Of a stretch of 64,000 nt of DNA, positions 8,850 through 26,710 are shown piece after piece. The notes beneath the pieces are model-generated. The model did no database searches. It worked only from the letters and a program-made list of their open reading frames with translations, and had not been told where the DNA came from. Origin of the DNA: a virus; the IMG/VR virus record IMGVR_UViG_3300035211_000097, positions 1 through 64,000 of that record; one strand, written 5' to 3'. A program made the translations under genes and the position numbers. Position 1 is the stretch's first letter. Each line of letters begins with the position of its first letter.

Positions 8850-9778
8850 AAGAGATATTTATTGAGAAGAAATTCAGTAAGGGATCACTCGATGTAATTA
8901 ACAAAGCAAATAAGCTGATTGCTTCCTACCGGGCGCAGGGATACAGTCTGACACTGAGACAGTTGTATTATCAGTTTGTGGCTCGTGATCTTATTCCGAA
9001 TAATATGAACAGCTATAAACGGCTGGGTAATATAATCAATGATGGCAGGTTGGCCGGGATGATCGACTGGAATGCAATCACTGATAGAACAAGATCGTTG
9101 ACGAAATCGCCTGCATGGACAAGTCCAGCGGAGATTTTAAACTCTGCTATAGAGCAGTACAGGATAGATCGCTGGGCCGGTTCCCCCGTATACGTGGAGG
9201 TCTGGGTAGAGAAGGATGCCCTGAGCGATGTTGTTGAGCAGGCGTGTGCATCCTACGACATACCATCTTTTGCCTGCCGGGGCTATGTATCGCAGTCGGC
9301 CATGTATGAAGCAGCACAGAGGATTATAGAAAAAGCTGATGACTTTGAAAGGATGACCGGGGCTGTACAGGAGGCGTATATAATCCATCTGGGTGACCAT
9401 GACCCATCAGGAATTGATATGACAAGGGACATTCAGGATCGTTTGAGTTTGTTTAATGCTTACGTGGAAATAGACAGGATCGCTTTGAACATGGATCAGG
9501 TTGATCAGTATAACCCACCACCGAACCCTGCCAAGTTGACAGACTCACGGGTGGGAGGTTATATCAGTCAGTTTGGAAATTCATCATGGGAGCTGGATGC
9601 TTTGGAGCCGTCTGTTATAACCAATCTTGTTCAGAGAAAAATAACCTTTTATATGGATGAAGAAATTCGGGACAAGCACATTGCACAGGAAAAAGCACAG
9701 CGCAAAGAAATGCGTGAAAAGGTCGGCAACATTGAGTTTAAGGAATATAATGATAACTCTTATGGAGATGATGAATGA
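8846..9778 (+). CDS. Topoisomerase VI subunit A-like (Mini-A type) winged-helix + TOPRIM protein
   Basis: TLRQLYYQ (catalytic-Tyr region), VEVWVEKDAL, RGY.SQS, HLGDHDPSG, RIALN, WELDAL. Confidence 0.8.
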   Translation: MKEIFIEKKFSKGSLDVINKANKLIASYRAQGYSLTLRQLYYQFVARDLIPNNMNSYKRLGNIINDGRLAGMIDWNAITDRTRSLTKSPAWTSPAEILNSAIEQYRIDRWAGSPVYVEVWVEKDALSDVVEQACASYDIPSFACRGYVSQSAMYEAAQRIIEKADDFERMTGAVQEAYIIHLGDHDPSGIDMTRDIQDRLSLFNAYVEIDRIALNMDQVDQYNPPPNPAKLTDSRVGGYISQFGNSSWELDALEPSVITNLVQRKITFYMDEEIRDKHIAQEKAQRKEMREKVGNIEFKEYNDNSYGDDE

Positions 9779-11801: not shown

Positions 11802-12338
11802 ATGGCAAAGACATTCAGCGGTTATAAACTGCATGGTCATATGAAGTTTCAGGGTCTTGATATATCCATAGAAAATGAGAGGGGATCAGTTAGACGTGGT
11901 GAGGATGCAAATGGCAGGCCGTGGGCTACTTTCATGCATATCCCTTATGGGTATATTAAAACTACTGAAGGGGTGGATGGAGATCATGTAGACTGTTATA
12001 TCGGCCCGAACTGGAATTCTATGTTGGTATTTATTATACACCAGCAAGACCCTATTACAAAAAAATATGATGAGGACAAATGTATGCTCGGTTTTAATAC
12101 TGAGCAGGAAGCCCGGAAAGCATATGAAAGACAATACGATAAGCCCGGTTTTTTCCAGTCAATGACTATTGTAACTATGCCACGGTTTAAAACCTTGTTG
12201 AAAGAAAAATATGGGCTTAAACTGAAATCAAGAAAAGATAGAAAGCTGGTATGTCAGCACAGACAAAAGAAGCAGGGACATTTACCGGTAAATTCGGATC
12301 AGGTGTTTGAGGAAGGTCAGCATGGCAAAAAAAAGTAG
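11802..12338 (+). CDS. InPase (inorganic pyrophosphatase-like) domain of the phage polyvalent-protein type
   Basis: FQGLDISIENERGSVRRG...W...M..PYGYI..TEG.DGDHVDCYIG...DEDKCMLGF. Confidence 0.85.
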   Translation: MAKTFSGYKLHGHMKFQGLDISIENERGSVRRGEDANGRPWATFMHIPYGYIKTTEGVDGDHVDCYIGPNWNSMLVFIIHQQDPITKKYDEDKCMLGFNTEQEARKAYERQYDKPGFFQSMTIVTMPRFKTLLKEKYGLKLKSRKDRKLVCQHRQKKQGHLPVNSDQVFEEGQHGKKK

Positions 12339-12498
12339 AATAATTGTAGGCAAGGGAAGGCCCTTGCCACAGAAGGTATTGCGTGAAGCCTCCAAGCGAT
12401 ACACAGAGGATTCTGTAACTATTTATGATGGAGCCACAGGTCTTTTTGCTACTGAAGAACAGAAGAAAAAAGAACAGGAGTCCATAGCTTCAATATGA
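12322..12498 (+). CDS. Small basic hypothetical protein
   Basis: ATG at 12322 after GAGGAAGG. Confidence 0.5.
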   Translation: MAKKSRIIVGKGRPLPQKVLREASKRYTEDSVTIYDGATGLFATEEQKKKEQESIASI

Positions 12499-13868
12499 AA
12501 AGGTTAGTTATTCTGAGCAAAGCAAAATATACAAAACGCTGGAAGGGTAAAGATGGAAAGTGGCATTATGAATACCCTCAGGCGAAGAAAGGCAGAACAA
12601 AAAAGGACATTACAGATACACCAGAATTTAAACGGTGGTTTAAGGATTCCAAGGTTGTGGGCAAGAGTGGCAAGCCTCTGGTTGTCTACCACGGCACACC
12701 GGTGGGTGAGTTTGATGAGTTTATGACGGATGTTCCTGTTGATAAACGTAATTTCATTCAAAGCAAAGGTGCTTTTTTTTCATCATCGACAAATACTGCC
12801 AGCGAGTATACTTTTAATTACCGTAAAATGTTGCCTGCTGCTGAAAGATTAGAACAGAAAAAAAGTGAAGCGATGAGAGCGCATATAGCTGCCAAGCAAG
12901 CAGGCGATACAGAACTGGCGCAAAAATATAATGACGAATATTACAGACTGCATGATCTGGATATGAAAACTTATCCAGATATGAAAGACAAACTTTTTCG
13001 AGGCCCTGTTTATCCCGTGTACTTGAGTATACAAAATCCGCTGGTTGTGGATGCGGAAGGGAAATACTGGTACGAGGTAATGCCTGATATTTATAAAAAA
13101 GATTTAAGCGGGTATGATGGTATTATATTTAAAAACATGATTGAGATAGGTGAACCGCAAGATACCTATGTGGTGTTTGAACCTACACAGGTCAAGTCAA
13201 AATTTAATCGAGGTACTTTTAATTCAAGAGACCCGAAAATAAATAAGAGTCTACAAAAAGCAAAATATTTAAAACGCTGGAAAGGCCCTGATGGAAAGTG
13301 GCGATATAAATATAAAGAGACTGCCCCACCCAAAGGAAAATATGAAAAAGCTGTGGCAGAGATGGAAGATTTTTGCCTTAAGTTTTATGGTAATAAATCT
13401 GAAGTCGGTGTCAGTCTGGATGCAAAAGGTAATGTGCTTACCGAGACTTATGGCGATGCAAACAGTGTGCGCTATTCTAATGAAGATATAAAGAAGTTGA
13501 ATGGCGCACGGGTACATATACATAATCATCCATCTGATGTCAGTTTCAGTATGGCAGATATGGCTTTCGGAATTATCAACAATATAAAAGAAATGCGAGT
13601 GGTCACAGAGAAACATATTTACATTTACCGTCCACCGGAAAAAAGGGAGCCTTACGATCGGGAAGAGGGACGGATCAGGGTTGAGTTAGCTAAATCTGCT
13701 ATACAGGCACACTGGGAACGGGCGAGTGCTGCGAATTATGATCGGGTACATAGTATGCATGAAAGTGGTCTTGTCACCAGAGAAGAGGCCAGTCATGTAT
13801 TTCAAAATGATTTGGTAGAAACGTTTGCAAAAAATTACGGTGGTACATATATAAGGATGAAGAAATGA
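12495..13868 (+). CDS. ADP-ribosyltransferase (ART-PolyVal) + JAB/MPN-like two-domain effector with duplicated basic tag
   Basis: TPEFKRWF.DSKVV...PLVVYHGT, GAFFSS, VYPVYLSIQNPL, GYDGII, VVFEPTQVKS; C-terminal E...HNHPS..SFS.AD. Confidence 0.85.
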   Translation: MKRLVILSKAKYTKRWKGKDGKWHYEYPQAKKGRTKKDITDTPEFKRWFKDSKVVGKSGKPLVVYHGTPVGEFDEFMTDVPVDKRNFIQSKGAFFSSSTNTASEYTFNYRKMLPAAERLEQKKSEAMRAHIAAKQAGDTELAQKYNDEYYRLHDLDMKTYPDMKDKLFRGPVYPVYLSIQNPLVVDAEGKYWYEVMPDIYKKDLSGYDGIIFKNMIEIGEPQDTYVVFEPTQVKSKFNRGTFNSRDPKINKSLQKAKYLKRWKGPDGKWRYKYKETAPPKGKYEKAVAEMEDFCLKFYGNKSEVGVSLDAKGNVLTETYGDANSVRYSNEDIKKLNGARVHIHNHPSDVSFSMADMAFGIINNIKEMRVVTEKHIYIYRPPEKREPYDREEGRIRVELAKSAIQAHWERASAANYDRVHSMHESGLVTREEASHVFQNDLVETFAKNYGGTYIRMKK

Positions 13869-14323
13869 CAACAAAGATAAAATTTCGGTTGTTAAAAGAA
13901 ACCTCACAAATGCCACATTTCGGCGGTGAGGATGAAAAGAATGCAGGGATTGATTTTTGTGCAGCTGAAGAGGTGATGATCTCTCCAAAAAGTTCAGAAG
14001 TGGTTGGTCTGGATGTTGCGTGGGAAGTTGATAAATATATTGGGAACTTGCATAAATACGTTATGATCATTCAGTCCCGGTCAGGACTGGCTTTTAAGCA
14101 TCAGATAGAAGCCTCTAATGCCGGGGTTATCGATGAAGATTACCGGGGAGAAATAAAAGTACGACTCTATAATAATTCATATGAGCCGTTCTTTGTAAAA
14201 CCCGGAGATCGTATTTGTCAGGGAATTGTATCAGAACTTCCTGATATAATGATAGTAGAGGCAGAAGAATTATCAGAAACAAAACGGGGTGACAAGGGGT
14301 TTGGGAGTAGTGGTATAAAATAG
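13865..14323 (+). CDS. dut: Trimeric dUTPase
   Basis: AGIDF, SRSGLA, AGVIDEDYRGEI, GDRICQ, RGDKGFGSSG (five motifs). Confidence 0.95.
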   Translation: MTTKIKFRLLKETSQMPHFGGEDEKNAGIDFCAAEEVMISPKSSEVVGLDVAWEVDKYIGNLHKYVMIIQSRSGLAFKHQIEASNAGVIDEDYRGEIKVRLYNNSYEPFFVKPGDRICQGIVSELPDIMIVEAEELSETKRGDKGFGSSGIK

Positions 14324-14760
14324 TGGATAAACGAACGTTGATAGGAAAATTCATACACACCAGCTGGGCGAATTTAAATATTCGCTGTGGTAAATATAGA
14401 CACTTACAAACTACTAAAAAATGTAATACATATACAAGTGTTGTTATACATTTTTCCAGAAAAGAGTACAAGAAGTGGTGTTTGGAAAGAGAAAAACAGA
14501 TATTATCTTTGTCTCGACCTTCTTTAGATCGTATTAATCCTGCTGGCGATTACACAATAGAAAATATACAAGTTATAGAGCTTGCTGAAAATATACGGAA
14601 AGATAAAAACCATTATAACGGGTACGGTGTGTGTTCTATATGTAAGCAAAAGAAAAAGAGCCGGTTGTTTACAAAAGATAGAAGAAGACGCAGTGGGAGG
14701 GGTGCTGTGTGTAAATCTTGTGATAGTAAGCGGAATTCTATAAGTACAGGAGTGAAGTGA
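14323..14760 (+). CDS. HNH-like (homing) endonuclease with C-terminal Zn finger
   Basis: RPSLDRINPAGDYTIENIQV...EN; CSICK...CKSC. Confidence 0.75.
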   Translation: MDKRTLIGKFIHTSWANLNIRCGKYRHLQTTKKCNTYTSVVIHFSRKEYKKWCLEREKQILSLSRPSLDRINPAGDYTIENIQVIELAENIRKDKNHYNGYGVCSICKQKKKSRLFTKDRRRRSGRGAVCKSCDSKRNSISTGVK

Positions 14761-15257
14761 TGAAATTAGTTGTTTTCAAAAACAAAGAAAAGGTTGTTCC
14801 GGCTACCTTACTCAAAGCCGAGAAGAGAAAGAAACGAGTACATAAAGGTGAAGACAAAGACGCTTTTATTTCCCGGAAGATGTCGGAGATGAAAGAAGAA
14901 TTCCCGGATCAGGCACAGCGGTATGCTGTGGCTTTGAGTATGTGGGAAAAAGAGCGTGGTAATTCTGATGTTGCCAAGTCTCTGTTTTTAAAGGCTAAGT
15001 ATATCAGCAGAAAAAAGGGAAAAAATGGTAAGTGGGTTTACACCTATACTAAAAATAAACATCAGCGAGCAACTTCTGTAAGTTCGGATGATGATTTAGA
15101 TGAAAAATGGAATAAAAAAGTGGAAACTGCACGAAAGATACTTATACAAAGTGGATCAGATAAGGAAACTCTTTCAAGGTATTTAGATGATCCTGACGAA
15201 GATGAAATTGACATGATAATCAAGAGGGGAGTTACAAGCCGTAAAGACAGTACATAA
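14757..15257 (+). CDS. Putative internal head protein with basic tag
   Basis: LLKA, VAKS, FLKAKYISRKKGKNGKWVYTY; FISR.MS...EFPD..QR.A module. Confidence 0.65.
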   Translation: MMKLVVFKNKEKVVPATLLKAEKRKKRVHKGEDKDAFISRKMSEMKEEFPDQAQRYAVALSMWEKERGNSDVAKSLFLKAKYISRKKGKNGKWVYTYTKNKHQRATSVSSDDDLDEKWNKKVETARKILIQSGSDKETLSRYLDDPDEDEIDMIIKRGVTSRKDST

Positions 15258-15290
15258 AAAGTAACTCCTTACACTTAAATTAAAGTTTCA

Positions 15291-15330
15291 TGTTATTATA
15301 AAGGTAGGTGGTTCTCCATCTACCTTTTTT
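15291..15330 (+). promoter_or_regulatory. Class B promoter followed immediately by a terminator-like leader hairpin
   Basis: TGTTATTAT, then AAAGGTAGGTGG-TTCT-CCATCTACCTTT-TTT, then GGAG RBS. Confidence 0.55.
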
Positions 15331-15344
15331 ATGGAGTCAAAAGC

Positions 15345-18300
15345 ATGAAGTATAAACCGGATACATTGATTAAAGTAGGACGTACATGGTTTTTTAAATC
15401 ATTAGATAATAAATTAGTTTCTTTCAGAGTACACAGACCTGAAGTATTTAAAATTTTGGTAAAAGGTAAATACTATTCTCCCGATGAAGTAAAGGCCCGT
15501 GGTATGCGCTGGGTTACAATTAGAGGGGCCAGAGTACTCCTACAGGGAGTGGGTGACGGCTGGGTTGTTGTCGGCGGTGCAGGCGGTAAGTTGAACCATA
15601 TGAAGATTGACCGAATTCTTTCCAAAGAGGATTATGCTGAGAAGCGTAAAGAAAAAGAAAAACAGAGAAAGGATATAGGTCGGGAGCTTACCCCGGAAGA
15701 GAAAGCAGCGGAACAGGCCAAGTCCGAAGAAAGAAAAAAACAGGAAACAGCAGCTCTCACCAGCTATGTTCAGAAAGTGAATGCGCTGGCCGGAAATAAG
15801 CTCGATATAACTGCTGAGAATATTAACCGGGTAGAGTCAGCTGCCGGGAAGGAAGTTGATTTTAATCGAAAGGTTATGCGGGCCATGCTTTCACCAGAAG
15901 AGATCGAAAAGATCAGAGAACAGGCTAAGGATTATGTTTCTAAGCAGAAGCGATACCGGGACATCGGGGAAAAGCGTGACACTAAAACCGAAAAAGACAT
16001 GCAGACTCATATTGATAAAGAAATAGACAGACAAGTTAAGCGAAAGGTTAAAGAGAAAACCAGACAGATTGAACATCAGGCGACTCAGCGGATTGCTCAC
16101 GATATGCTGGATGTAGGGATCAAGGATAAGGAGCTGTCTACTGCTATCGATCTTGAAAAAGCCAAGAAAATCTTGAAGTACAAACGTGATTTTAAAAAGA
16201 CCATGAAGGATATTTATGGAGAGACAGAGGCCGATGATGCATCCTACAAGGTCGGTATGACGTATGCCGGGGATATGGAGTCTGATTACGATGGTATTCT
16301 GGAACAGGTTAAAAACGATATTGAGACTGAAAAGAATATTGAATTCTATGATAAAATCGACAAGAAATATGAACAGCTTCACAAGCATATTGATAAATCA
16401 GCTGCTGCTGCTTTGAATGGAATTATGGCTGATTCCTATGGAACCGGAGCATTTTTTAACTCAAATATGGTAAAAGAGCTGGGAATTGATGCTGTTTCGA
16501 GAGCAATTGCTTATAAAATACAGATAGACGGCAGAGCAGATTCAGTAAAAGAAGCACTGGTGAGGCACTCGAATAATGTTAGATTGAAGACGGTAGAGAA
16601 AGCCTTGAAAAACGCTGATCAGGCAATGGAAAGCACACAGGATATTTTGGACTTGGCTGATGGTGATGATACTGTGTATAGTAAGGCTACTGCAAACGGC
16701 TATGCAATACGGCATCGTACACAAGCAATGCAGGAACTCGCCGGTGCAGCCGGGTCTTTACGTGCCATGGCACATATGATAGATGCTCTGGAAGACCCAC
16801 CGAATGATTTACTTCAAATTGATATGGGGCGTGATCTTTCTAAAGCAAAACGCAGAATGAACAGGGCCGGTTTAAAAAATGATCAATATTCCATAAAGAA
16901 ACAGAGTAACGGTAGGCTAATGGCTGAAATAAAATCATCTTCTCTGACACCGTTCTTTGAGAATTCCCATGAAACCAATTTAATGAAACAGAAGCTGAAC
17001 AAAATCAAACGGCATGAAATGAATACCGGTCATGTCAGTGACGGGATTAAACCTGAATATACATGGTCAAAAGATGCCCCGGATGCTCAGGAAGCTGGCT
17101 ACCGGTTTGCAAAGGAAAGGGGCCGGGCTTTACTGGATTTTAAGGCTGGTCTGGGAAAAACATTTATAACAGCTAACATTGTGGCTGATGCTGTTAAAGA
17201 GGGAAAGAAAGTTCTGATAGCTGTACCGGCAAATTTAAAGGGCCAGCAGGTAAAAGAATTACAGAAGTTTACCATGGCAGATATAGGGGATCAGGTAAAA
17301 TCCTCTTTTAATTTTACACGTACAGGTGGTATGGAAGAATTGTCCCCGGAAGATAGATTGGCCCGGTATAATGAACCCGGTGTCCATGTTGTCAGCCATA
17401 ATGCTTTGATTAACGATAAAGAAGCTCTAATGAATGCCGGTTTTGATGTAATTGTAGCTGATGAAGTTCATCAGATGATTAACTCAAAGCTGGGAGATAA
17501 TGAAAAAAAAGTAAGTTCCCGGACATACAGGAGCCTGAAGGAACTGTCAGCAAATGCTGAAAGCATGGTAGCCATGACTGGAACACCGATCAAAAAACAT
17601 AAGGTTGAACTTAAGAAATTGGCCGATCTGGTAGACCCGGACAATAATCTGGGATCAAATACAGAATTTGTAAAAAGGCATGCAGGTATAAATCAAACTA
17701 CCTCTGCTTTCCAGTCTTCAGAAACAGAAGCTTTGAGAAAAGAGGTGTCAAACTTCACTTATTCTCAGGGGTATACTCTGAGGCCGAAACACAATGTAAC
17801 TGAACAGAAGATTACCATGTCACCTGAACAGCGCAGGCGTATGTCGCAGATACAGCAGCAATATGCTATTGATACTGCCAAAGGCAATAAAAATGCAGCA
17901 GCGACCCGTGACATCGATCTTTGGCGAAATACACATCTGACTGGCGGTGTAAATAATCCAAAGTTTCAGGCTATTATAAATGACATCCAGACAAACGGAA
18001 AAGATCAGAAAGGTCTGTTATTCTTTTCACAGGGAGCTGCTACAGAGGGTGTTGCGCAGTATGCGAAACAGCTTAATCAGGTTTTTGGGGAAGGAAGAGC
18101 TGAAGCAGTTTCCAGTAAGACCAGTGCTACTAAACTGGAAAGACTGAAAGCAAAAATAAATGATCCAAATGATCCCCTGAGGTTTTTGGTGGGGACAGAA
18201 ACTTTGTCTACCGGTCATAATTTACAGGGTGCCGGTTTTGTTCATCATGTAGATATTCCGATGAGTAAAGCACAATCGGATCAGCAGGAAGCGAGAATGT

Positions 18301-18494
18301 ACAGAAAGGGTCAGGAGAAGGATGTACGTACAGTGCATTTTTATGCGAATGATCCTAATGATATAAATAAGCGATTTAATTATAAGAAAGCGACAAAAGA
18401 AGCTGAACTTGTCGGCAATGAGTCAGCTGTTGCCGGTCTGGATGATTCCGGGTTCGGGGCTACTCTCAGACAGGTATCGGAAGGGGTAGCATAA
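15345..18494 (+). CDS. SNF2-family SF2 helicase/translocase (DarB-like ATPase, no methylase) with long helical N-terminus
   Basis: DFKAGLGKT, VPAN, ADEVH, MTGTPI, GHNLQ, QQEARMYRKGQ; N-terminal RWVTIRGARVLL..GG.GG module. Confidence 0.85.
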   Translation: MKYKPDTLIKVGRTWFFKSLDNKLVSFRVHRPEVFKILVKGKYYSPDEVKARGMRWVTIRGARVLLQGVGDGWVVVGGAGGKLNHMKIDRILSKEDYAEKRKEKEKQRKDIGRELTPEEKAAEQAKSEERKKQETAALTSYVQKVNALAGNKLDITAENINRVESAAGKEVDFNRKVMRAMLSPEEIEKIREQAKDYVSKQKRYRDIGEKRDTKTEKDMQTHIDKEIDRQVKRKVKEKTRQIEHQATQRIAHDMLDVGIKDKELSTAIDLEKAKKILKYKRDFKKTMKDIYGETEADDASYKVGMTYAGDMESDYDGILEQVKNDIETEKNIEFYDKIDKKYEQLHKHIDKSAAAALNGIMADSYGTGAFFNSNMVKELGIDAVSRAIAYKIQIDGRADSVKEALVRHSNNVRLKTVEKALKNADQAMESTQDILDLADGDDTVYSKATANGYAIRHRTQAMQELAGAAGSLRAMAHMIDALEDPPNDLLQIDMGRDLSKAKRRMNRAGLKNDQYSIKKQSNGRLMAEIKSSSLTPFFENSHETNLMKQKLNKIKRHEMNTGHVSDGIKPEYTWSKDAPDAQEAGYRFAKERGRALLDFKAGLGKTFITANIVADAVKEGKKVLIAVPANLKGQQVKELQKFTMADIGDQVKSSFNFTRTGGMEELSPEDRLARYNEPGVHVVSHNALINDKEALMNAGFDVIVADEVHQMINSKLGDNEKKVSSRTYRSLKELSANAESMVAMTGTPIKKHKVELKKLADLVDPDNNLGSNTEFVKRHAGINQTTSAFQSSETEALRKEVSNFTYSQGYTLRPKHNVTEQKITMSPEQRRRMSQIQQQYAIDTAKGNKNAAATRDIDLWRNTHLTGGVNNPKFQAIINDIQTNGKDQKGLLFFSQGAATEGVAQYAKQLNQVFGEGRAEAVSSKTSATKLERLKAKINDPNDPLRFLVGTETLSTGHNLQGAGFVHHVDIPMSKAQSDQQEARMYRKGQEKDVRTVHFYANDPNDINKRFNYKKATKEAELVGNESAVAGLDDSGFGATLRQVSEGVA

Positions 18495-18877
18495 TGAAGC
18501 AGGATGTACAATCCAGTTTGGATAAAGTAGAAGGGAAGCTCGCAGAACTTCAGGCACAGCAGGCGGTTTCGATCAATCAACAGAAAGAGCTTTTAAAAAA
18601 AGCTCACAGTAATATTGAAAAGATTAATCGGAACTTAAACGGATTGCAGAAAAGGCTGGAGCCATACCTGACAGAAGACGGAGAACCGGAAACACCTTCA
18701 CAGATAAATTCTTTTCTGGAATTACGGGGCAGGTATGAAGACCTGCTTGTTCTGCGTAAACAGGAACAGGACGCTATACAGATTATTGAAGAATCTCTGG
18801 CCGAGGCTGAACTGGGTATGACTTCCCCTGTCAACAAAGGATCAGATAAAACATTGGGAGCGATTGTTGATGAATAA
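18494..18877 (+). CDS. Coiled-coil hypothetical protein
   Basis: TAATG coupling; heptad pattern. Confidence 0.65.
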   Translation: MKQDVQSSLDKVEGKLAELQAQQAVSINQQKELLKKAHSNIEKINRNLNGLQKRLEPYLTEDGEPETPSQINSFLELRGRYEDLLVLRKQEQDAIQIIEESLAEAELGMTSPVNKGSDKTLGAIVDE

Positions 18878-19814
18878 GTTATTTATGAAAGGTAAAAAAG
18901 CGTCCATCGGAACCATACGGACATGGTCAGGTGGAAAGCGTTATAAGAAAACATCACAGGGCTGGGTACCGGCAGGAGAAAAAGCTGATACTGCGCTGGC
19001 TGCTGGGTGGAAAATTTCTCCGTCAAAGGAAACTCCCGGACATTTTGATGTGTCTTATAAAGGGCAGATAGCGCACACTGTTCCTACTATGAAAGATGCT
19101 CGACATGTGGTTCGTTCTGAGGGCGGATTTATACAGGAAGATAAAAAGCAGAAACAACGACAGAAAAAAGCAGAAGAAACTACTGTTTTTCTTTATAAAA
19201 AGTGGGACAAATTGGCCCATGAGTATGGGGTCGAACATGATACCATTGATTTGGTGCGTGCTTACAAGAAAAGAGAAAAAGGAAAAGGTGTATCTTTGCC
19301 TATTGCTTCTAAGGCTGATTTTCAGAACCTGTATCAGCATACAACAATAGCGATGATCAGCGCAGGAAGGAACCCTGCAAATAAAGCTGATATGAAATTG
19401 ACAGATGCACAGATCGATGCTCGAACAAAACAGCTGGAAGTCGATCTGGTAAAAGCCGGTTATGTGTATACCCCGGCTGAAGGTAAATATGAGAACCCGG
19501 AAAAATCATTTATGGTAATGATTCATGATGCCAATAAAAATGAAATGTTTGATCTGGGTGCAAAATATAATCAGGATTCTGTAGCGTTTGCTGACAAAGG
19601 AAAAAACAGTCTTTTGATGACGACTGGTACAAAGAAGGGAAAAGAAGTCATGGCAGGAGAAGGGTTCTCTATAATTGATATGCCGAAAGATTCTGATAAT
19701 TACTATACAGACATTTCGGTTGCCGGTAAAAGGTTGCGGTTTAGTCTGATCATGGAAGAAATTAAAAAAGCCTTGCGCTTATTTTTTAAAGTGAAAACCG
19801 GAGGTAAAAAATAA
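18870..19814 (+). CDS. Putative SAM lyase (T3 SAMase-like) with N-terminal basic tag
   Basis: ISAGR...ARTKQL..DL...GKYE..EKSFMV...LGAKYNQDSV parallels T3 SAMase VSAFR/GCYRE/EEKT/WEQDCV. Confidence 0.65.
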   Translation: MNKLFMKGKKASIGTIRTWSGGKRYKKTSQGWVPAGEKADTALAAGWKISPSKETPGHFDVSYKGQIAHTVPTMKDARHVVRSEGGFIQEDKKQKQRQKKAEETTVFLYKKWDKLAHEYGVEHDTIDLVRAYKKREKGKGVSLPIASKADFQNLYQHTTIAMISAGRNPANKADMKLTDAQIDARTKQLEVDLVKAGYVYTPAEGKYENPEKSFMVMIHDANKNEMFDLGAKYNQDSVAFADKGKNSLLMTTGTKKGKEVMAGEGFSIIDMPKDSDNYYTDISVAGKRLRFSLIMEEIKKALRLFFKVKTGGKK

Positions 19815-20686
19815 TGCAAGCAGAAGCAACAGCAGTGATTCCTACTGGTTGGGTGATAGCTGGAATAGTTGTAATTGTTATTGTTTTGATACTCATTATA
19901 ATCAAGGCATCTGTAAAAGTTTTAAAAACAAAAGGTGGTAAGATTCATGTAAATTTTAAAAAAGGTTCTGTGGATTTTGAGAATGGTGAAGAGTCCACAG
20001 AAGAACCGCCTGAAGAAAAAAAGTTATTTACTGACGTTCTGGTAAACCACGAGGATGCTATGCCTTGTGATACAGATAAATGTGAGCGAATAAAGGCGGT
20101 TGAAGTGTTAAAACTAATGGAGAAACTGGAAGAGTACTTGAATGACAAGTGGATGATCAGGCTGAAATTAAATTTGCGTGATCAAATGAAGTTGGTTGAG
20201 GGTAAGTTGCGCTATATCAAGGGGCTGATGTATAGTGTATTTCTTACTCTCGTGAAGAATAATAAACCGGAAGACTTTGATATTATAAATTGTAGTGAGT
20301 CTTATACATATGGTAAGGCTTTGGATGTCGTAATTTCCCGGTTAAAAGATGATATGCGTGAACGATGTTCTGATGATTGTTTTGAAAAGATCAGTGACAG
20401 GGAAACTGATTCTGGGCCGAGTCTATGGCATGTGTATAAACAGAATGCATGGGAGACTATGCAGGCATTGGTTACTGAAACGTTGGATCATGAATATCCT
20501 TTTTTTATAGATATCGACAGGAAAGATGTATACAATGCAAATAAGAAGATGATTGAAGAAGAAGAGCTGAAACGTCTGGTTCTGAACACGTTTAACAATC
20601 TTCGGGATATTGCTATCAAGTATGATAACCAGATTAACAATAAGAAAGAGGCCTATCAGGAAGAGGTTAAAAAGGTTTTTAAATAA
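19814..20686 (+). CDS. N-terminally membrane-anchored helical protein
   Basis: WVIAGIVVIVIVLILIII TM segment. Confidence 0.65.
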   Translation: MQAEATAVIPTGWVIAGIVVIVIVLILIIIKASVKVLKTKGGKIHVNFKKGSVDFENGEESTEEPPEEKKLFTDVLVNHEDAMPCDTDKCERIKAVEVLKLMEKLEEYLNDKWMIRLKLNLRDQMKLVEGKLRYIKGLMYSVFLTLVKNNKPEDFDIINCSESYTYGKALDVVISRLKDDMRERCSDDCFEKISDRETDSGPSLWHVYKQNAWETMQALVTETLDHEYPFFIDIDRKDVYNANKKMIEEEELKRLVLNTFNNLRDIAIKYDNQINNKKEAYQEEVKKVFK

Positions 20687-21660
20687 TGTTGTTATTATCG
20701 TTACGAAAGCACCGGAAATTACCGGAAGGAACAACGACAATAAAATATGACTCGAAGACAGGGCATGCCTATCTTTATAAAAAGGAAGGTGGTAAGTGGA
20801 TATATGTAAAAGGGCAACAGACACGGGGACGCACTAAAACTGTAACACAGAAAAAGGAAAGCGATTTCAAATATTCTATGGATGTAAATGTTATTAAAAA
20901 TCTCATGGAAAAGAGGGACATTAAAACATTGGAAGATTTAAAAAAGTATGTTTCTTCTCATCCGAAAGACGATTCTATGCAGCTGTATCGGGATGTTGTA
21001 AACGGTCTGCGCAAGGAATTTACACAAAATCCAAAACTTAAACCGATGGCTATGGTTGCTTTAAAAAAATTTGGTACTCTATTGACCAGTACAATCAGGC
21101 ATGAGGCCCCGAAAAAGAAAAGGCTGACAGTGGATGTGACACCAAAGGGAAAAAAAGAAGCTACCTACAGAAGAAAGCCGAAAACATCAAAACCGGCTTC
21201 TTTTCCTGCTTCCAGTATACGGCAGGCTGAAAAAATTACCGGATCATGGCATCCGGCTGAGTCCATGCCTACTACCGGAGAAATAAAAAAGATGATTGCC
21301 TCAGGTAATGCTAAAGTGCTGAAAGGCAGTCCGCAGAAGTCCGGGACGTGGAGGCTACCGAAAAAGTTGAGGGATGAAAGATATAATCATCTTTTGATAC
21401 CATTCAGACCTGATGAAAAAGGTATTAAGGTTACTTTTCAGCAGATTAAGCGAAATAAGAGAAGGGACAGTGTTGTCGCTTCTGTACAGGTGACTGTTCC
21501 GTATGCCTATGCACAGCAATTTATGGAGAAGCATATACAGACTGTACGAATTCGTAATGATCGAATAGGGCAAATGAAACGGTCAGCTGGTTATCAAAAT
21601 TCTCTGACTGGTAAAAAGATGACAGTAAAAACAACAAAGAAAGAAGCGAGAACAGCGTAA
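20686..21660 (+). CDS. Highly basic putative internal head protein
   Basis: Lys-rich; N-terminal LP.GT...Y.K...GKW.Y tag variant. Confidence 0.6.
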   Translation: MLLLSLRKHRKLPEGTTTIKYDSKTGHAYLYKKEGGKWIYVKGQQTRGRTKTVTQKKESDFKYSMDVNVIKNLMEKRDIKTLEDLKKYVSSHPKDDSMQLYRDVVNGLRKEFTQNPKLKPMAMVALKKFGTLLTSTIRHEAPKKKRLTVDVTPKGKKEATYRRKPKTSKPASFPASSIRQAEKITGSWHPAESMPTTGEIKKMIASGNAKVLKGSPQKSGTWRLPKKLRDERYNHLLIPFRPDEKGIKVTFQQIKRNKRRDSVVASVQVTVPYAYAQQFMEKHIQTVRIRNDRIGQMKRSAGYQNSLTGKKMTVKTTKKEARTA

Positions 21661-22808
21661 TGTGTGTATTGTGTGAACTGGAATACAAAGAAAAAATCTC
21701 TTTTGAAATAATCAAGCCATATGAAAATACTTATGCCAAACTGGAAAAAGCAATAGAAACACTTGAAAAAGCCATGGGTGGTAAGCATAAACAGTTGACA
21801 GAAGTATCTCCATATTTATCAATGCGTGAATTGGAAGAGAAGAGTAAAACTGAGGTAGAGAAAGGCTTACATACATTGTTTCAAAATATTTCCCGGAAAT
21901 GGCTGGGATTTGAGAAAGCCAATAATGACCCTTTTAAGCTGGGGTCTGATATATTCATAAACCCACAGACAGGTAAACCGCTTACAAAAGGCGAATGGGC
22001 TAAAATGAAAAAGGATATACTGGGAGCTTTTCAAAAGATTTACGGTGACCAGGACAAGTACATTATAAAGTCTGCCATGGCATTAGGAAAAATCCTCAAG
22101 GCTATGCCGACAAAGGACGCTATAAAGACACCGCTTAAAGATTTATCTATAAAACTTAGCCATGAGGTGAGGAAAGTAGAGGCTGATCCAATATATGCAA
22201 ATACTCTGGCGTTTGCAGAGCAGAGAACAGGACAATTGATCACCAATTTATCTGAATATCAATTTACAAAGATACACGATGCCATCTTACAGGCTCAGGT
22301 AGACCGTTTGTCTGCCCGGCAATTAGAAACAAATTTATTTGATCAGTTTTCCGAGATGAACAGGGACTGGCGAATGATTGCTGAAACAGAGATGGCAAAT
22401 AATGAAAATAACGGACAGTTGTTAACGGCTTTGTCCCGTGCTACTGAAGAGAAACCGGTCTTCATGCAGGGTGGTTCTTCGGGTGGTGCGTGTTCATGGT
22501 GTCGTAACATGGTAAATAATAAAGTGGTCATGGTTGTGCCGGAACCTCCTACCGGTGGCGGTGATATTGTTTATTATCAGGATAAGCCGTATACAGCTGT
22601 CTGGCCCGGCAAAACTAATGCAGGCAGGAAGAGATCAAACTGGTGGGTAGCTTCTGGCGCACAGCATCCTCATTGCCGGTGTTACTGGGTAGAGTATGAA
22701 CCCGGTTTTGAAGATGAGTGGAAACAGCTTCAGGCTGCCATCGATGAGGCTACTAAGGACAGTGAGGCTGTGAAAAAATTATATGAGAAACCTGCTTGGG
22801 AAAGATAA
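21660..22808 (+). CDS. MuF-family minor head protein
   Basis: RDWRMIAETE, AC..C, QHPHCRC; upstream of protease. Confidence 0.8.
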   Translation: MCVLCELEYKEKISFEIIKPYENTYAKLEKAIETLEKAMGGKHKQLTEVSPYLSMRELEEKSKTEVEKGLHTLFQNISRKWLGFEKANNDPFKLGSDIFINPQTGKPLTKGEWAKMKKDILGAFQKIYGDQDKYIIKSAMALGKILKAMPTKDAIKTPLKDLSIKLSHEVRKVEADPIYANTLAFAEQRTGQLITNLSEYQFTKIHDAILQAQVDRLSARQLETNLFDQFSEMNRDWRMIAETEMANNENNGQLLTALSRATEEKPVFMQGGSSGGACSWCRNMVNNKVVMVVPEPPTGGGDIVYYQDKPYTAVWPGKTNAGRKRSNWWVASGAQHPHCRCYWVEYEPGFEDEWKQLQAAIDEATKDSEAVKKLYEKPAWER

Positions 22809-22813
22809 TTTCA

Positions 22814-22825
22814 TGTTATAATAAA
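22814..22825 (+). promoter_or_regulatory. Class B promoter of the head operon
   Basis: TGTTATAATAAA; operator-like palindrome at 22828-22842. Confidence 0.65.
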
Positions 22826-22857
22826 ATAACTATAGTAAAGTAAAAGGAGACTACCTT

Positions 22858-23457
22858 ATGGGTGACGAACAGAACACAGAAAATGTTGTAACTGAAGAAA
22901 CTACTCCTGAAGAAAATCAGGAACAGGAAGAGGCAACTACCAAAACAGTTGTGGAAGGTGCAAATGAAACAACGTCGGAAGAATTGGGTGCTGTTGAGCT
23001 GACCATGGAAGATGTAAATGAAATGACATCTGAAGAATTAGATGGACTTACTGAGGCGGACAAGCAAGCACTGAAACTTGATGATAACAAAATCGCTTCT
23101 TTAAAAGTGGCTGCTGATGAAAGAGCGAGGGCAGTTGAACTTGAAAAAGAAGATGCTGAAAAAGAAGCTGTTGCTACTGCTAAAAATGATGCTAATGCAG
23201 CAGCCAAGGAAAAACAGGACAAAGAAGATGTCAAGGCCAAAGCGGATAAGGAAAAACAGGACAAGGACAATGCCCCAAAGAGTAACACCGGTGTGACAGA
23301 TAAGGTTACTGAAAAAGTATCTAAAGAGTCTGTCAAACAGTTACCGAAAGATATGAGGAAAATTGTTCAGGCTGCAATCCGAGTTCTTGCGTCTAAAACA
23401 CTTAATCAGGCAGAAATGTCGGATTTTGTAGATTCATTTCCGGCTCTTTTTGAATAA
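22858..23457 (+). CDS. Acidic, low-complexity head-associated protein
   Basis: AAGGAG RBS; E/T-rich N-terminus, KEKQDK duplicate. Confidence 0.65.
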   Translation: MGDEQNTENVVTEETTPEENQEQEEATTKTVVEGANETTSEELGAVELTMEDVNEMTSEELDGLTEADKQALKLDDNKIASLKVAADERARAVELEKEDAEKEAVATAKNDANAAAKEKQDKEDVKAKADKEKQDKDNAPKSNTGVTDKVTEKVSKESVKQLPKDMRKIVQAAIRVLASKTLNQAEMSDFVDSFPALFE

Positions 23458-23477
23458 AAGGGCGTAAAGAGGTCGAA

Positions 23478-23699
23478 ATGTCAGTGAAAATTCAGCAGGG
23501 TGTTGACAGCAATACCGGACGGAGTTATCATAAAAATAGAAAGAAGATCAAATTGGTGCTTGCGAAGAGTGCTGAGGATTTTCATGAAGTCCGGTGTGAT
23601 GAGTGCAATGCCTTGTTCTTTAAATCTACAGGACTTTCCGGTACATTACAAATGAAGTGTCGAAAGTGCGGAAAGCTGGTAGCACTGCATTTCGGCTGA
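23478..23699 (+). CDS. Mu Com-like Zn-ribbon regulator
   Basis: EVRCDECNALFFK...MKCRKCG. Confidence 0.65.
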   Translation: MSVKIQQGVDSNTGRSYHKNRKKIKLVLAKSAEDFHEVRCDECNALFFKSTGLSGTLQMKCRKCGKLVALHFG

Positions 23700-23724
23700 A
23701 GCAAGAAGTATTCGATCCCGATAG

Positions 23725-23760
23725 AGGACACACTTTTTAATTAAGGTGTGTCCTTTTTTT
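23725..23760 (+). terminator. Terminator/attenuator before the protease RBS
   Basis: AGGACACAC-N12-GTGTGTCCT plus T run, then ATGGAG. Confidence 0.65.
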
Positions 23761-23773
23761 ATGGAGTTTGATA

Positions 23774-24577
23774 ATGCGTGAGACTTTGGAAAAAATCGAT
23801 AATCCGTTTTACAGTCCTTTCCCGGACAGTTCGGTATTGATAAAAGCAGAAGAGCATAACGACAAATGGATCGTGTATATGCAGGCTTCTAATGAAATTC
23901 GGGATCAGGAAGGTGACATCATAGAGATGTCGGCTTTGAAGAAAGCCCGTGATTATTATTTGAGCCACGGGGTCTTGTCATGGAACCATCAGCATAAGAT
24001 CAAACAAGACCCGAAATACATTGTCGGTGAACCCATAGACGTGGAATTTACCAACAATAACGAAACCATATTGAAAGGGTTTCTTTATAAAGAAAACGAT
24101 ATCGCTCAGAACATTATGAAAAATATACGTTCCGGGGCGAAAAAATTAGGTGCTTCTATCGGAGGTGGTATTCTACATAAATCACAGGACAAAAAAGTTT
24201 CTGCGGTTATTTGGGATGAGACAGCAATAACGCATTGTCCGGTAAACGATGGAACACTGGGAAATGTACAGATTGTACCTTTTGCAGAATTCATGAAAGC
24301 ACTAACAGCTGGTTCCGGGGTAGACGCTTCGTCTTTCTCAGGTGGCCGGGCCATAACTCCTGAAAGTATGCAGGGAGCTACGGTAGAAATGATTGGTAAC
24401 AGGTCACAGCTTGAGTGGGATAGTATTTTCACTTCTTTGGCAAAGGCCATTGCTACCGATGTGGTAACCAATTATAACGAATTGGTTGATTTTTGCAGCA
24501 GTAATCTTGGTTTAGATCAAGATGAAATAAAGGCGGTTGGTCAGACTGTCGTAAATTATTTTAAACGGGAGAGCTAA
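23774..24577 (+). CDS. Prohead protease
   Basis: ASNE.RDQEGD, WNHQH, ASIGG, ETAIT..PVN; upstream of scaffold and MCP. Confidence 0.85.
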   Translation: MRETLEKIDNPFYSPFPDSSVLIKAEEHNDKWIVYMQASNEIRDQEGDIIEMSALKKARDYYLSHGVLSWNHQHKIKQDPKYIVGEPIDVEFTNNNETILKGFLYKENDIAQNIMKNIRSGAKKLGASIGGGILHKSQDKKVSAVIWDETAITHCPVNDGTLGNVQIVPFAEFMKALTAGSGVDASSFSGGRAITPESMQGATVEMIGNRSQLEWDSIFTSLAKAIATDVVTNYNELVDFCSSNLGLDQDEIKAVGQTVVNYFKRES

Positions 24578-24579
24578 AC

Positions 24580-25323
24580 ATGAAAACAGGCGAGAAAGAA
24601 AAAGAAACTGTTTTAGATCAGGAAGCTCTTGAGAAATCTCTGGACACTTCGATGGCCGGTTTAAAAGCAGAATTGGGTATAACCCCTGTTGAACCTGTCA
24701 AACCCGAACCTCTAAAAAAAGGTAAAACCGAGGAAGAAAACGGCGAACCTGAAGACACTGAAGGGGAATCTGAAAAAGAGAAAGACGGCGAAGAAGAGGG
24801 ATACGAGGAAACAGCAAAATCCATTGAAGCAATGATGAATGATGCCCCTGAAGCTGAAGCAGCAATGGATGTAGAGCCCTTTCTCCGTACTCTCGTAAAG
24901 AGTATCGACAAGAGATTTAATGATCTCGCTTCTCAGATGACTGATGAAGTCGGCAAAAAACTTGACGGTGTTGTAAGTCTTGTGAAATCACAGGCCACAA
25001 TGATGCTTGCGCAGGCTGATCTTCAGAAGTCCATCAGCGAAAACACAAGGAAGATAGGGGATCAGACAATTCCCTCTGCTTCTGTCCGAGGCAAAGCCGG
25101 GGAACGCTTTGCAAAGAGTAATGATGGGAAGACACCAGAAATCGACTTCTCAAACATTGATCCTGCAAAAATTGACACTCTTGAGTGGCTGAAGAAAGGA
25201 TGGATCAACAATACTCAGGCCACTGTTATTGATAACAGGGTCACCAAAAACGCTTTGTTTAAATCGGGTGATGCCACTGATCTTATGGTGAAATCACTCA
25301 TAGAAAAACAGGAGGCTAAATAA
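24580..25323 (+). CDS. Putative scaffolding protein
   Basis: Between protease and MCP; acidic; many hydrophobic-x-K-S sites. Confidence 0.7.
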   Translation: MKTGEKEKETVLDQEALEKSLDTSMAGLKAELGITPVEPVKPEPLKKGKTEEENGEPEDTEGESEKEKDGEEEGYEETAKSIEAMMNDAPEAEAAMDVEPFLRTLVKSIDKRFNDLASQMTDEVGKKLDGVVSLVKSQATMMLAQADLQKSISENTRKIGDQTIPSASVRGKAGERFAKSNDGKTPEIDFSNIDPAKIDTLEWLKKGWINNTQATVIDNRVTKNALFKSGDATDLMVKSLIEKQEAK

Positions 25324-25324
25324 A

Positions 25325-26710
25325 ATGAAACCAGCAGCTATTTTTGACGAAAAGCTCACAGGATATGGCGAACTGCATGCGGAGTCTCTTCAGAATTTGC
25401 AGAAAGCCTTAACTGCTGGTGACGGTGTTGATGCCGGTTCTTTTACCGGTGGTCGTGCGCTGACACCTGAGAGTTTAGAAAAAACTCTGGTCAACATCCT
25501 GCATACACAGGATGAAGCCGTTCTGTTCAAAGCTCTGAAGAAAACACCCATCAAAGGGCCTGTTCACCAGTGGAATCAGCGTGACGAAGTCGGCGCAGAT
25601 GACGGAGCATGGGTACCGGAAGGTGGCGATTCTGAAGACACTGATCAGAACATCGAACGTAAGTACTTGACTGCGAAATATCTTCAGACTCGCAGACAGG
25701 TAACCTTGCAGGCAGCATCGACAAACATGCTCGAAAACGCAATGGCAATCGAACAGAATGCCGGTATGCTCTGGCTTGTGAGAAACACAGAAAAAGGTCT
25801 GATCTACGGAAATTCAGACCATGTTGCGTATCAGCCCGATGGACTGATCAAACAGATTCCCACATCGAACGTTCTTGATATGAGAGGTGGCGATGCAACG
25901 TCCAGCACCTTTGAAGATCGTATCGGTGAATCCGCAAGACTCATCCGTGACAGTTATGGTAAGGCCAGTCTGATATTGTCCTCTACCATGGTTATGCAGG
26001 ATGTACAGGTTCTGTTGAGAGACAGGATCAGATTTCAGGCAGGAACTACACAGGGAAGTGCGGTGTTCACAGAATATCCCACACCTTTTGGAACACCTGA
26101 TCTGAAAGAAGACATCTTCATCAAGGAAGGAAATGTACCTTCTCCGTCAAGTCTGACGGCAAAAAGACCAAGTGCGCCTACTCTGGGTACGCTGACAACC
26201 CCTGCCAGTACAACCGGTTACTCTTTTGATGCCGGTTCTGCAGGTGACTATGTGTATAAAGTTGTCGCAGTAAACAGGTACGGTGATTCTGTTGCTTCAG
26301 CAGAACTTGTTGTCGCTGGTGTCGCCACAGGTGACATGGTTCAATTTACCATTACTGATGGTGCTGTAGCCGGTACAGCTTACAAGATTTACCGCTCAAT
26401 TAAGGGTGGTGTTACAGGTGCTGAAGTAAGGTACATGGAAACAATCGTAAGAACAGGTGCAGCCACTGTTTATCAGGATGATAACAGTGAACTTCCCGGA
26501 TGTTCTGACGTTTTCGTTCTCACAATGGAAGGAATGTATGATGCAATCGAATGGTTTCAGTTTCTTCCAGCAATGAAGTTCGATTTATTTCCGACAAATG
26601 CAGCTGTTTATCCGTTCCTGATGCTTATTTTCGGAGGTCTTGCACTGAAGAAACCGCCTCAGCATGTACGGATCAAAAACGTTGCGCCCTCTAATCTGGG
26701 CTGGTTCTAA
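25325..26710 (+). CDS. Major capsid protein (SPO1/Twort-like)
   Basis: LQK-ALTAG.G.D....GGRAL..ESL N-terminus, EGG, Y.YKVVAVN..G.S, LPG, QFLP.MK. Confidence 0.9.
   Translation: MKPAAIFDEKLTGYGELHAESLQNLQKALTAGDGVDAGSFTGGRALTPESLEKTLVNILHTQDEAVLFKALKKTPIKGPVHQWNQRDEVGADDGAWVPEGGDSEDTDQNIERKYLTAKYLQTRRQVTLQAASTNMLENAMAIEQNAGMLWLVRNTEKGLIYGNSDHVAYQPDGLIKQIPTSNVLDMRGGDATSSTFEDRIGESARLIRDSYGKASLILSSTMVMQDVQVLLRDRIRFQAGTTQGSAVFTEYPTPFGTPDLKEDIFIKEGNVPSPSSLTAKRPSAPTLGTLTTPASTTGYSFDAGSAGDYVYKVVAVNRYGDSVASAELVVAGVATGDMVQFTITDGAVAGTAYKIYRSIKGGVTGAEVRYMETIVRTGAATVYQDDNSELPGCSDVFVLTMEGMYDAIEWFQFLPAMKFDLFPTNAAVYPFLMLIFGGLALKKPPQHVRIKNVAPSNLGWF

Follow-up and report, generated by a model that had tools for sequence, protein, structure and literature searches.

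Phage-type polyvalent proteins, which join at least two disparate domains in one polypeptide, were described in 2017 by Iyer, Burroughs, Anand, de Souza and Aravind, and are predicted there to be delivered with the DNA (PMC5512222). How such proteins enter the virion, and whether they are fused or cut, has been an open question since that description. In T4, a capsid targeting sequence on IPI-III and Alt is removed by gp21 (PMC3012670, PMC9958956). The P1 Dar system comprises DarA, Hdf, DarB, Ulx, DdrA and DdrB (PMC12810830, PMC9024508), and the prohead protease of the phiKZ-like phage SPN3US processes many proteins inside the head at a short motif that they have in common, before they are ejected (PMC7411985, PMC10052503). 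Here we compare with these systems a peptide tag of 19 residues, basic and aromatic in character, that recurs in proteins encoded beside the head genes of an uncultured, contractile-tailed phage. The DNA analysed (the window) is positions 1 to 64,000 of the IMG/VR virus record IMGVR_UViG_3300035211_000097, which is one contig of 95,702 bases.

The tag is probably the N-terminal header of a portable, cleavable capsid-cargo unit in a clade of uncultured myoviruses of ~95 kb with SPO1/Twort-type heads; we put the probability of this reading at roughly 55%. Each unit comprises a short hydrophobic/basic leader, the motif L-x-K↓[A/S] (the arrow marks the putative cut), a 17-residue basic/aromatic hairpin (KYxKRWKGxDGKWxYxY), a spacer of 30-120 residues, and an enzyme predicted to act on the host or its defences. 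Several units may follow one another within a giant polyvalent protein in some relatives, and in other cases, as in the window, they are encoded by separate genes. The proteins would presumably enter the prohead, where the prohead protease would cut after Lys, at the same motif as in the major capsid protein (MCP), the scaffold and the protease itself. Cleavage would resolve giant proteins into single enzymes, and separately encoded ones would shed a leader of 5-15 residues. Each freed enzyme would then bear the basic hairpin as its new N-terminus, and the hairpin might hold it to the head interior or to DNA until ejection together with the genome. The known kind to which such a system would belong is that of protease-processed, head-packaged ejection or polyvalent proteins; the header is apparently new.

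The three copies of the tag in the window are as follows.

12513..12575, plus strand: tag 1, KAKYTKRWKGKDGKWHYEY at 12519, preceded by LS; LSK↓AKYTKRWKGKDGKWHYEY, putative cut after K9
13251..13313, plus strand: tag 2, KAKYLKRWKGPDGKWRYKY at 13257, preceded by LQ; LQK↓AKYLKRWKGPDGKWRYKY, between ART and JAB
14985..15047, plus strand: tag 3, KAKYISRKKGKNGKWVYTY at 14991, preceded by FL; FLK↓AKYISRKKGKNGKWVYTY

These are exactly the three copies that a strict pattern finds in six frames over all 95,702 bases. They occupy residues 9-27 and 255-273 of the open reading frame (ORF) at 12495-13868 and residues 79-97 of the ORF at 14757-15257. Both the positions and the letters given for them in the original prediction, which a model had made from the letters of this DNA, are correct. 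The resemblance among the three peptides is not due to chance: a profile of 22 tags gives single tags E-values of ~1e-9 to 1e-11 against 1.84 billion proteins. The tag profile matches tags 1 and 2 with E-values of 2e-17 and 2.3e-14 (listed in that order) and tag 3 with 4.9e-16.

The tag defines a large family. A scan of IMG/VR, seeded with an alignment of five tags, recovered further viral contigs that carry it. A profile of 22 tags was then run against a word-indexed collection, where it matched 79 proteins, and exhaustively against 1.84 billion representative proteins, where it matched 327 clusters at E<=0.001 and 35 clusters at E<=1e-10; single tags score E-values of ~1e-9 to 1e-11 in this last search. 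The 185 proteins that were fetched contain 250 tags, one to four each, with the consensus L-x-K-A-K-Y-[ITL]-[KR]-R-W-[KR]-G-[KP]-D-G-K-W-x-Y-E-Y. Because Pfam, searched with the tag peptides at E<=10, returned only the sub-threshold families LPD23 (0.11), DUF5633 (0.26) and Zn_Ribbon_Topo (0.0098), and NCBIfam returned no match, the tag is not a catalogued family. It was not found among 50,697 GenBank phage records by megablast of the region or tblastn of the tag. Literature searches found no paper describing it, and the main text of the polyvalent-protein paper, as far as it was searched, describes no such header (PMC5512222). The tag family is apparently undescribed.

The genomes of 185,579 species, scanned with one peptide pattern that could miss divergent tags, contain one bona fide tag locus, on a phage-like contig of 96 kb. 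This contig (L029; CAYPBR010000001.1, 96,093 bases) carries TerL, portal, MuF, three tagged genes, SNF2, protease, scaffold and MCP, and it looks like a complete phage genome of this clade. It is filed under a 'Candidatus Woesearchaeota' metagenome-assembled genome, which is more likely a binning artefact than a sign of an archaeal host. Four other loci from the same scan were rejected, because they hold different motifs that resemble the tag only in part, around WKGKDGKW. This octapeptide is also present in two unrelated settings, as TGWWKGKDGKWRFE within polyvalent proteins of 3100-4400 aa (L003:4013-14653, L004:3716-17035, L033:2427-11738) and as HPYKIWKGKDGKWY[ST]Y in Lachnospiraceae and Clostridium proteins of ~400 aa (L030:8641-9873, L031:9890-11101). 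Neither setting matches the full tag profile.

In two different constructs, the AlphaFold2 model of the tag is a two-stranded beta-hairpin, with a predicted local distance difference test score (pLDDT) of 74-86. In tag 2 the strands are KRWK and WRYK (pLDDT 76-86), and tag 1 has equivalent strands. In both constructs the residues ahead of K-A are disordered (pLDDT <50) and are therefore predicted to be an exposed leader and not a third strand. The ART part of the model of tag 1 with ART is unreliable (mean pLDDT 52).

The motif L-x-K↓[A/S] that leads into the hairpin is very probably the prohead-protease site, judging by its distribution in the sequences of the head genes:

21660..22808, plus strand: MuF-like head morphogenesis protein, with an HPHCRC motif and 5 hydrophobic-x-K-[S/A] sites (enrichment z 3.6)
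23768..24577, plus strand: prohead protease (phrog_1028, 7e-15)
24580..25323, plus strand: scaffold protein, with 7 L/F/V-x-K-S sites
25325..26710, plus strand: MCP of SPO1/Twort type (SPO1/SU10-type; PF17236, phrog_752)

When hydrophobic-x-K-[S/A] sites in the 139 proteins of the window were compared with shuffled sequences, the scaffold ranked 1 (z 6.4), the protease 3, the MuF-like protein 4, and the protein that carries tags 1 and 2 ranked 5. In ten related head modules, the scaffolds are 32-42% identical and each has 8-11 sites; P3 is Leu in 77 of the 97 sites of these relatives, and tail proteins have 0-2 sites. The density of sites per 100 residues is 0.6-1.4 in the polyvalent and tagged proteins and 0-0.4 in their neighbours. 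A hydrophobic-x-K-[S/A/G/T] site stands directly ahead of KY in 78% of tags. The sites that had been listed beforehand (FMKG, FFKS, LVKG and the LQKA of the MCP) are all present.

The MCP boundary LQK↓ALTAG (K27, at 25403-25405) is kept as L-[QN]-K↓A in 10 relatives. The N-terminal stretch before it differs among them in length and sequence, and conservation begins at A-L-x-A-G-x-G-V-D-A. A copy of this cleavage region and of the N-arm of the MCP (LQK↓ALTAGDGVDAGSFTGGRALTPES, 25397-25480) lies in the C-terminal part of the protease as FMK↓ALTAGSGVDASSFSGGRAITPES (24290-24380, with K at 24296-24298). The copy is conserved as F-x-K-A-L-x-A-G... in 10 relatives and in SPO1L1; it may serve for self-cleavage or as a mimic for docking to the capsid. 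The same form of site is shared by the MCP (LQK↓A), the protease (FMK↓A) and the tags (LSK↓A, LQK↓A and FLK↓A). The scaffold sites, MCP boundary and protease copy are likewise present in the cultured phage SPO1L1. The MCP of the window matches SPO1 Gp6.1 (PDB 9vel) at 1e-34 and the phi812 MCP (5lii, 463 aa) at 8e-19. In 9row/9rox/9roz the phi812 chain has 439 aa and begins at residue 25 (VVK↓S), which aligns with the A of LQK↓A in the window, and the length of this deposited chain suggests that residue 25 is the mature N-terminus. The clade therefore resembles the Herelleviridae (SPO1 Gp6.1, phi812 MCP) in having a homologous capsid protein with an L/V-x-K↓A/S boundary, a protease with a copy of the MCP segment, and a scaffold rich in x-K-S sites. 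It differs in that cultured Herelleviridae lack the tag and the tagged effector set, and identity is only ~28%.

The tag is tied to head modules. For context, 12 contigs of relatives were inspected: the tag scan supplied 7 distinct IMG/VR contigs, other scans supplied 4 loci that partly overlap, and 1 is a genome contig. In all 12, at the bona fide tag loci, the tagged genes adjoin or fall between those for the portal, MuF, protease, scaffold and MCP, and the link of the tag profile to head modules, a check set in advance, is confirmed. The window shows the same arrangement: with the map taken as circular, the interval of tagged genes falls between the portal gene (90468) and the MuF, protease and MCP genes (21660-26710). 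This placement among late/virion genes, in the window and in the 12 related contigs, is that of phage-type polyvalent proteins.

The cargo also fits. The genes of the interval are listed here.

11802..12338, plus strand: InPase gene, 178 aa, without tag (Pfam PF18823, 2.8e-44)
12307..12498, plus strand: 63-aa ORF in another frame, between the InPase and ART genes, with no family match
12495..13868, plus strand: ART-JAB protein, 457 aa (leader, tag 1, ART-PolyVal, leader, tag 2, JAB-like domain)
13392..13865, plus strand: JAB/JAMM-like domain of that protein, motif HIHNHPSDVSFSMAD
14757..15257, plus strand: 166-aa protein with tag 3 in mid-protein and a leader-like N-terminus, MKLVVFKNK
15345..18494, plus strand: SNF2/ResIII helicase protein (Pfam; also Helicase_C), 1049 aa, without canonical tag
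18494..18877, plus strand: 127-aa protein, 3' of the SNF2 gene in all relatives
18870..19814, plus strand: SAM-lyase protein (Pfam PF23780, 1.2e-8; ORF start also given as 18864)
20686..21660, plus strand: 324-aa conserved protein, always immediately upstream of MuF

The window has domains from the polyvalent repertoire: PF18823 (InPase) and PF18760 (ART-PolyVal, 3.8e-18) score above their cut-offs, and SNF2/ResIII is present. The ART-JAB protein has a full-length homologue, P0009, that is 69% identical. Its C-terminal half is supported as JAB-like because of the confidence of the fold model (AlphaFold2 pLDDT 86), Foldseek matches in the PDB of which all of the top 10 and nearly all of the top 30 are JAMM/MPN/RadC (prob <=0.99, E ~0.02), and an HNHPS..S.S..D motif, of the metal-binding form H-x-H ... 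S-x-x-D, that is kept in all homologues, with a spacing one residue under the canonical one. The domain has no sequence match in Pfam, NCBIfam or PDB, and the Atlas gives weak leads to Prok-JAB and RadC. It also stands alone in other phages as tag plus domain, and its homologues include P0033, P0044, P0026 and P0013. The cargo parts of the 166-aa protein match no known family. The domains that the original prediction had named therefore hold for InPase, ART-PolyVal and SNF2 by Pfam, and for JAB by fold and motif only. The MuF assignment stands by the HPHCRC motif, by the Phage_Mu_F domain carried by 28 of its 30 named Atlas neighbours, and by its position ahead of the protease; it finds no backing in Pfam, where there is no match at E<=1 and PF04233 is thus unmatched. 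Pfam also supports the dUTPase in the window.

The tag behaves as a header in its position. The first tag lies within 15 residues of the start in 97 of the 185 proteins, about half of the 250 tags lie within 45 residues of the N-terminus, and the remainder lie between domains. The last tag is followed by at least 69 residues in all but five proteins, and the spacing from one tag to the next is 87 residues or more (median 251). Behind the tag are InPase, ART-PolyVal, ADPrib_exo_Tox, Zeta_toxin/AAA_33, NUDIX and SNF2 helicase domains, as well as S-AdoMet lyase, Topoisom_I (type IB topoisomerase), cupin, Gln_amidase, DUF5661, DUF6582 and the JAB-like domain, and many cargoes have no assigned domain. 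With more than 12 unrelated cargo domains behind it, the tag is portable, as had been proposed.

Among relatives, the genes of the window recur in fused form. In L007/P0010, whose portal is 53% identical to that of the window phage, a single protein of 1657 aa reads InPase, tag, X, tag, ..., SNF2, and in L006 a protein of 1603 aa contains tag, NUDIX and SNF2. The SNF2 ORF of the window corresponds to the C-terminal 1000 residues of these fused 1603-1657-aa proteins, with residues 15-1046 being 37% identical to the L007 and L006 proteins. The conserved SNF2 module starts after ILVK↓GKYYSPDEVKARGMRWVTIRG (site at 15456-15467), and L-x-K-[A/G] stands ahead of it in 5 of 5 sequences. P0041 (422 aa) holds InPase, tag and ART in one protein; its residues 1-170 are 61% identical to the InPase of the window and its residues 171-415 are 55% identical to the window ART. 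Homology of the window InPase to P0041 stops at LPVNSDQ, where P0041 has LPVNTDQ followed directly by ELQKAKY, and the end of the InPase gene is thus the exact start of the tag in the fused protein. P0002 has the architecture DUF5661, tag, Zeta, tag, InPase, tag, and P0005 has tag, ART, DUF5661, tag, Zeta, tag, InPase and a tag of a second type. The C-termini of P0041 and P0005 fall within the leader of a would-be next header, and P0075 is a further case of fusion or fission at the header. P0137, which is 72% identical to the SAM-lyase protein of the window, has a true tag of the first type at its N-terminus, where the window protein has a different peptide.

These alignments give good support to the view that the window genes are a split version of polyvalent proteins, punctuated by protease-type sites; this support does not yet extend to the proposed capsid address. 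The unit of evolution is 'header + enzyme', with breaks and joins between genes falling at the header, and this explains why enzymes that are fused in one phage are encoded separately in another. The relatives L007, L006, L015, P0002 and P0005 encode true multidomain polyvalent proteins that contain the tag. In the window, the ORF at 12495 joins two disparate domains, ART-PolyVal and JAB-like; because the other genes are single-domain, the window as a whole is the split form. It had been proposed that this phage uses separate genes instead of one giant fusion. The split arrangement is real, but it is not special to this phage: across the clade, fused and split forms replace one another freely, and the window is one split arrangement of many.

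The clade shares with the published polyvalent proteins a repertoire of InPase, ART-PolyVal, SNF2, zeta toxin, NUDIX and RadC/JAB-like domains placed among virion genes, and the same predicted delivery with the DNA (PMC5512222). It differs in that embedded zincin peptidases were proposed to process the published proteins, whereas the punctuation here corresponds to the probable prohead-protease motif. In addition, the tag matches no Pfam LPD family, the clade has no MuF/portal fusion, and most units in the window are separate genes. Among window proteins searched with Pfam, neither a MuF/portal fusion nor an embedded zincin peptidase was found; polyvalent proteins often have such features but do not require them.

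The P1 Dar proteins are likewise separate anti-restriction proteins, including a large helicase protein, that in P1 are packed in the head and co-ejected, and the N-terminus of DarA is cut by the prohead protease. In contrast, P1 loads its proteins hierarchically by way of DarA and Hdf on the capsid wall, and its proteins are not known to have a peptide tag in common; no homologue of DarA or Hdf was detected in the window with Pfam and PHROGs. SPN3US differs in being a jumbo phage with a different protease motif, and no portable hairpin header has been reported in it. Its motif is S/A/G-x-E.

The T4 targeting sequence resembles the header in being a short N-terminal element on unrelated proteins; it ends in a prohead-protease site, as the leader of this clade may do, and the T4 cargo includes an injected ADP-ribosyltransferase. 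However, the T4 peptide lies on the removed side of an L/I-x-E site, whereas the hairpin is on the retained side of L-x-K↓A/S; the unit of this clade also occurs internally in polyproteins, and with no sequence relation the likeness is functional only. In this clade the leaders are 5-15 residues long and end in L-x-K↓A, with a median of 12 residues before the first tag, and the conserved part follows the site.

Several points weigh against the header reading. Lying on the retained (P') side of the site, the conserved hairpin is not a removable targeting leader of the T4 type. Entry into the head, cleavage of the tag, a partner for the hairpin and injection are all deduced from sequence, and no cultured phage among the 50,697 GenBank records carries the tag. 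The site is missing from 22% of tags, its enrichment was judged by simple shuffles and ranking and not by a model of protease specificity, and for the phi812 MCP the mature N-terminus is judged by how long a deposited chain is. It is also conceivable that the leader and L-x-K-A belong to the structure of a mini-domain and are not a cut site. The idea that the tag loads a whole toolkit is overstated: two proteins of the window carry the true tag and one more carries a tag of a second type, but the InPase, dUTPase, HNH-like and SNF2 proteins there are untagged, and ordinary non-virion genes such as that for dUTPase are interspersed in the block. If the tag is required for loading, the now-separate InPase may therefore stay unloaded.

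Within the header reading, two roles for the hairpin carry roughly equal weight. It may be an address, because the split genes share nothing else, or it may be a handle for DNA or ejection, because it is retained, occurs once per module and is basic and aromatic. A related alternative drops the address altogether: cargo would be cut at L-x-K↓A and would enter by way of the leader, MuF or scaffold, and the hairpin would be only a nucleic-acid-binding or ejection handle. The presence of one hairpin per module, and not per polypeptide, fits such a handle, as do its strongly basic, aromatic composition, its weak sub-threshold match to Zn_Ribbon_Topo, which is a single-stranded DNA-binding ribbon, and the apparent recognition of the MCP and scaffold sites with no hairpin. 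However, the hairpin has no significant similarity to any DNA-binding family, the split genes 12495 and P0137 share no other possible address, and all three tag types described below would need to bind DNA. We regard this alternative as unlikely, although it deserves serious attention. It is more doubtful still that the tag is unrelated to the virion and is an interaction or localisation module of cytoplasmic effectors (for example, one that binds a host factor), with L-x-K-A as part of its fold. The dUTPase and HNH-like genes interspersed in the window would agree with that, as would the tags that lack the site, and packaging of the tagged proteins is itself deduced. Set against this are the constant position between portal and MuF/protease/MCP in 12 contigs, a cargo that is the phage polyvalent repertoire, predicted by Iyer et al. 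to be packaged (PMC5512222), the identity of the tag prefix with the capsid maturation motif, and the disorder of that prefix in AlphaFold2 models.

Two further explanations seem very improbable. The header might be a DNA-level recombination junction for swapping effector cassettes, in which case the peptide would be neutral. Fusions and splits do occur exactly at the header, and tags 1 and 2 are fairly similar in DNA; however, averaged over alignment columns the three copies are only 74% identical, with no long identical runs, and conservation is at the level of protein, with K, Y, R, G, W, Y and Y near-invariant across clusters <50% identical. Alternately, modules might be released by an enzyme carried in the cargo, such as the JAB domain or a zincin peptidase, and not by the prohead protease. 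The JAB-like domain shares a protein with two tags, and self-processing by peptidases was proposed by Iyer et al. (PMC5512222, section 8). Yet a JAB or zincin domain is lacking from most tagged proteins, the bonds that JAMM enzymes cut are isopeptide or Gly-Gly and not L-x-K↓A, and the motif is the same as that of the capsid and scaffold sites.

A second type of tag is present at the N-terminus of the SAM-lyase protein.

18876-18971, plus strand: type-2 tag, FMK↓GKKASIGTIRTWSGGKRYKKTSQGWVP

The original prediction had taken the N-termini of the 18870 and 20686 proteins as looser variants of the tag. Neither belongs to the tag profile. The N-terminus of the SAM-lyase protein (FMKGKKASIGTIRTW...GWVP) does not match the type-1 profile and instead matches, with an E-value of 5.8e-6, a type-2 profile built from 18 peptides of other contigs; the 20686 protein matches that profile only marginally (E 0.74). 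The type-2 form is L-x-K-A-[KR][KR]-x-[PA]-I-G-T-[IV]-S-x-G-R-K-K-V-A-E-G-K-W-V-P-V, and type-2 peptides are both N-terminal and interdomain.

A third header, L-x-K-[AS]-G-G-P-[FY]-I-G-P-R-G-G-K-W-A-D-P, has a longer form that ends in GGKWADPxHxIPW. It occurs alongside type-1 (KAKY) tags in proteins of ten relatives and was not found in the genome of the window phage.

Carriers of the third header: L001:6029-7780 (residue 57), P0006, P0049, P0057, P0091, P0110, P0139, P0152, P0153, P0165

The L-x-K-[A/S] entry is common to all three tag types and also to the start of the SNF2 module. It is possible, and we suggest it tentatively, that SPO1-type heads use a general cargo code, in which an enzyme behind a leader, L-x-K↓A/S and a GKW-type hairpin would be loaded, excised by the maturation protease and injected. 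At least three types of GKW hairpin would then be interchangeable. If such a code exists, the giant polyvalent proteins of these phages would be capsid polyproteins rather than multifunctional enzymes.

To the question of how polyvalent proteins enter the virion and whether they are cut, this clade offers a concrete and testable answer, in that the header is present in >300 clusters and its first four residues are those of the capsid maturation site. The header reading predicts exact new N-termini, AKY... or SKY.... If the header suffices for loading, it would be a compact (30-residue) tool to pack chosen proteins into phage heads and a sequence flag for injected counter-defence enzymes in metagenomes.

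Other features concern the genome at large. The genes of the phage are all co-directional, and G+C is ~40%.

35734: tail sheath (phrog_279, 6e-68)
73348: large terminase
90468: portal

The stop codon of the 63-aa ORF at 12307-12498 overlaps the start codon of the ART gene, and this ORF could be either a scar left when the genes were split or a small gene that was inserted. The homologue of the 324-aa protein (20686) is the C-terminus of a 1008-aa protein in L013/L021.

Some relatives have MuF proteins of ~700 aa (L019:5476-7584, L025:5712-7862 and L028:1060-3153). These were considered as fusions of MuF to effectors, and that explanation was rejected: the extra length is an intein-like insert of ~320 aa (...HPHC↓VPGGQL ... 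YTCNGVIVKN↓C.CTWV; arrows mark here the borders of the insert) that interrupts HPHCRC, within HPHC↓RC. The MuF-like protein of the window (382 aa) has none.

A 310-aa protein encoded at 8846-9778 of the window matches phrog_6247 ('DNA topoisomerase') at 4.7e-109 and has no Pfam match. A counterpart that is 48% identical is encoded upstream of the portal in L007.

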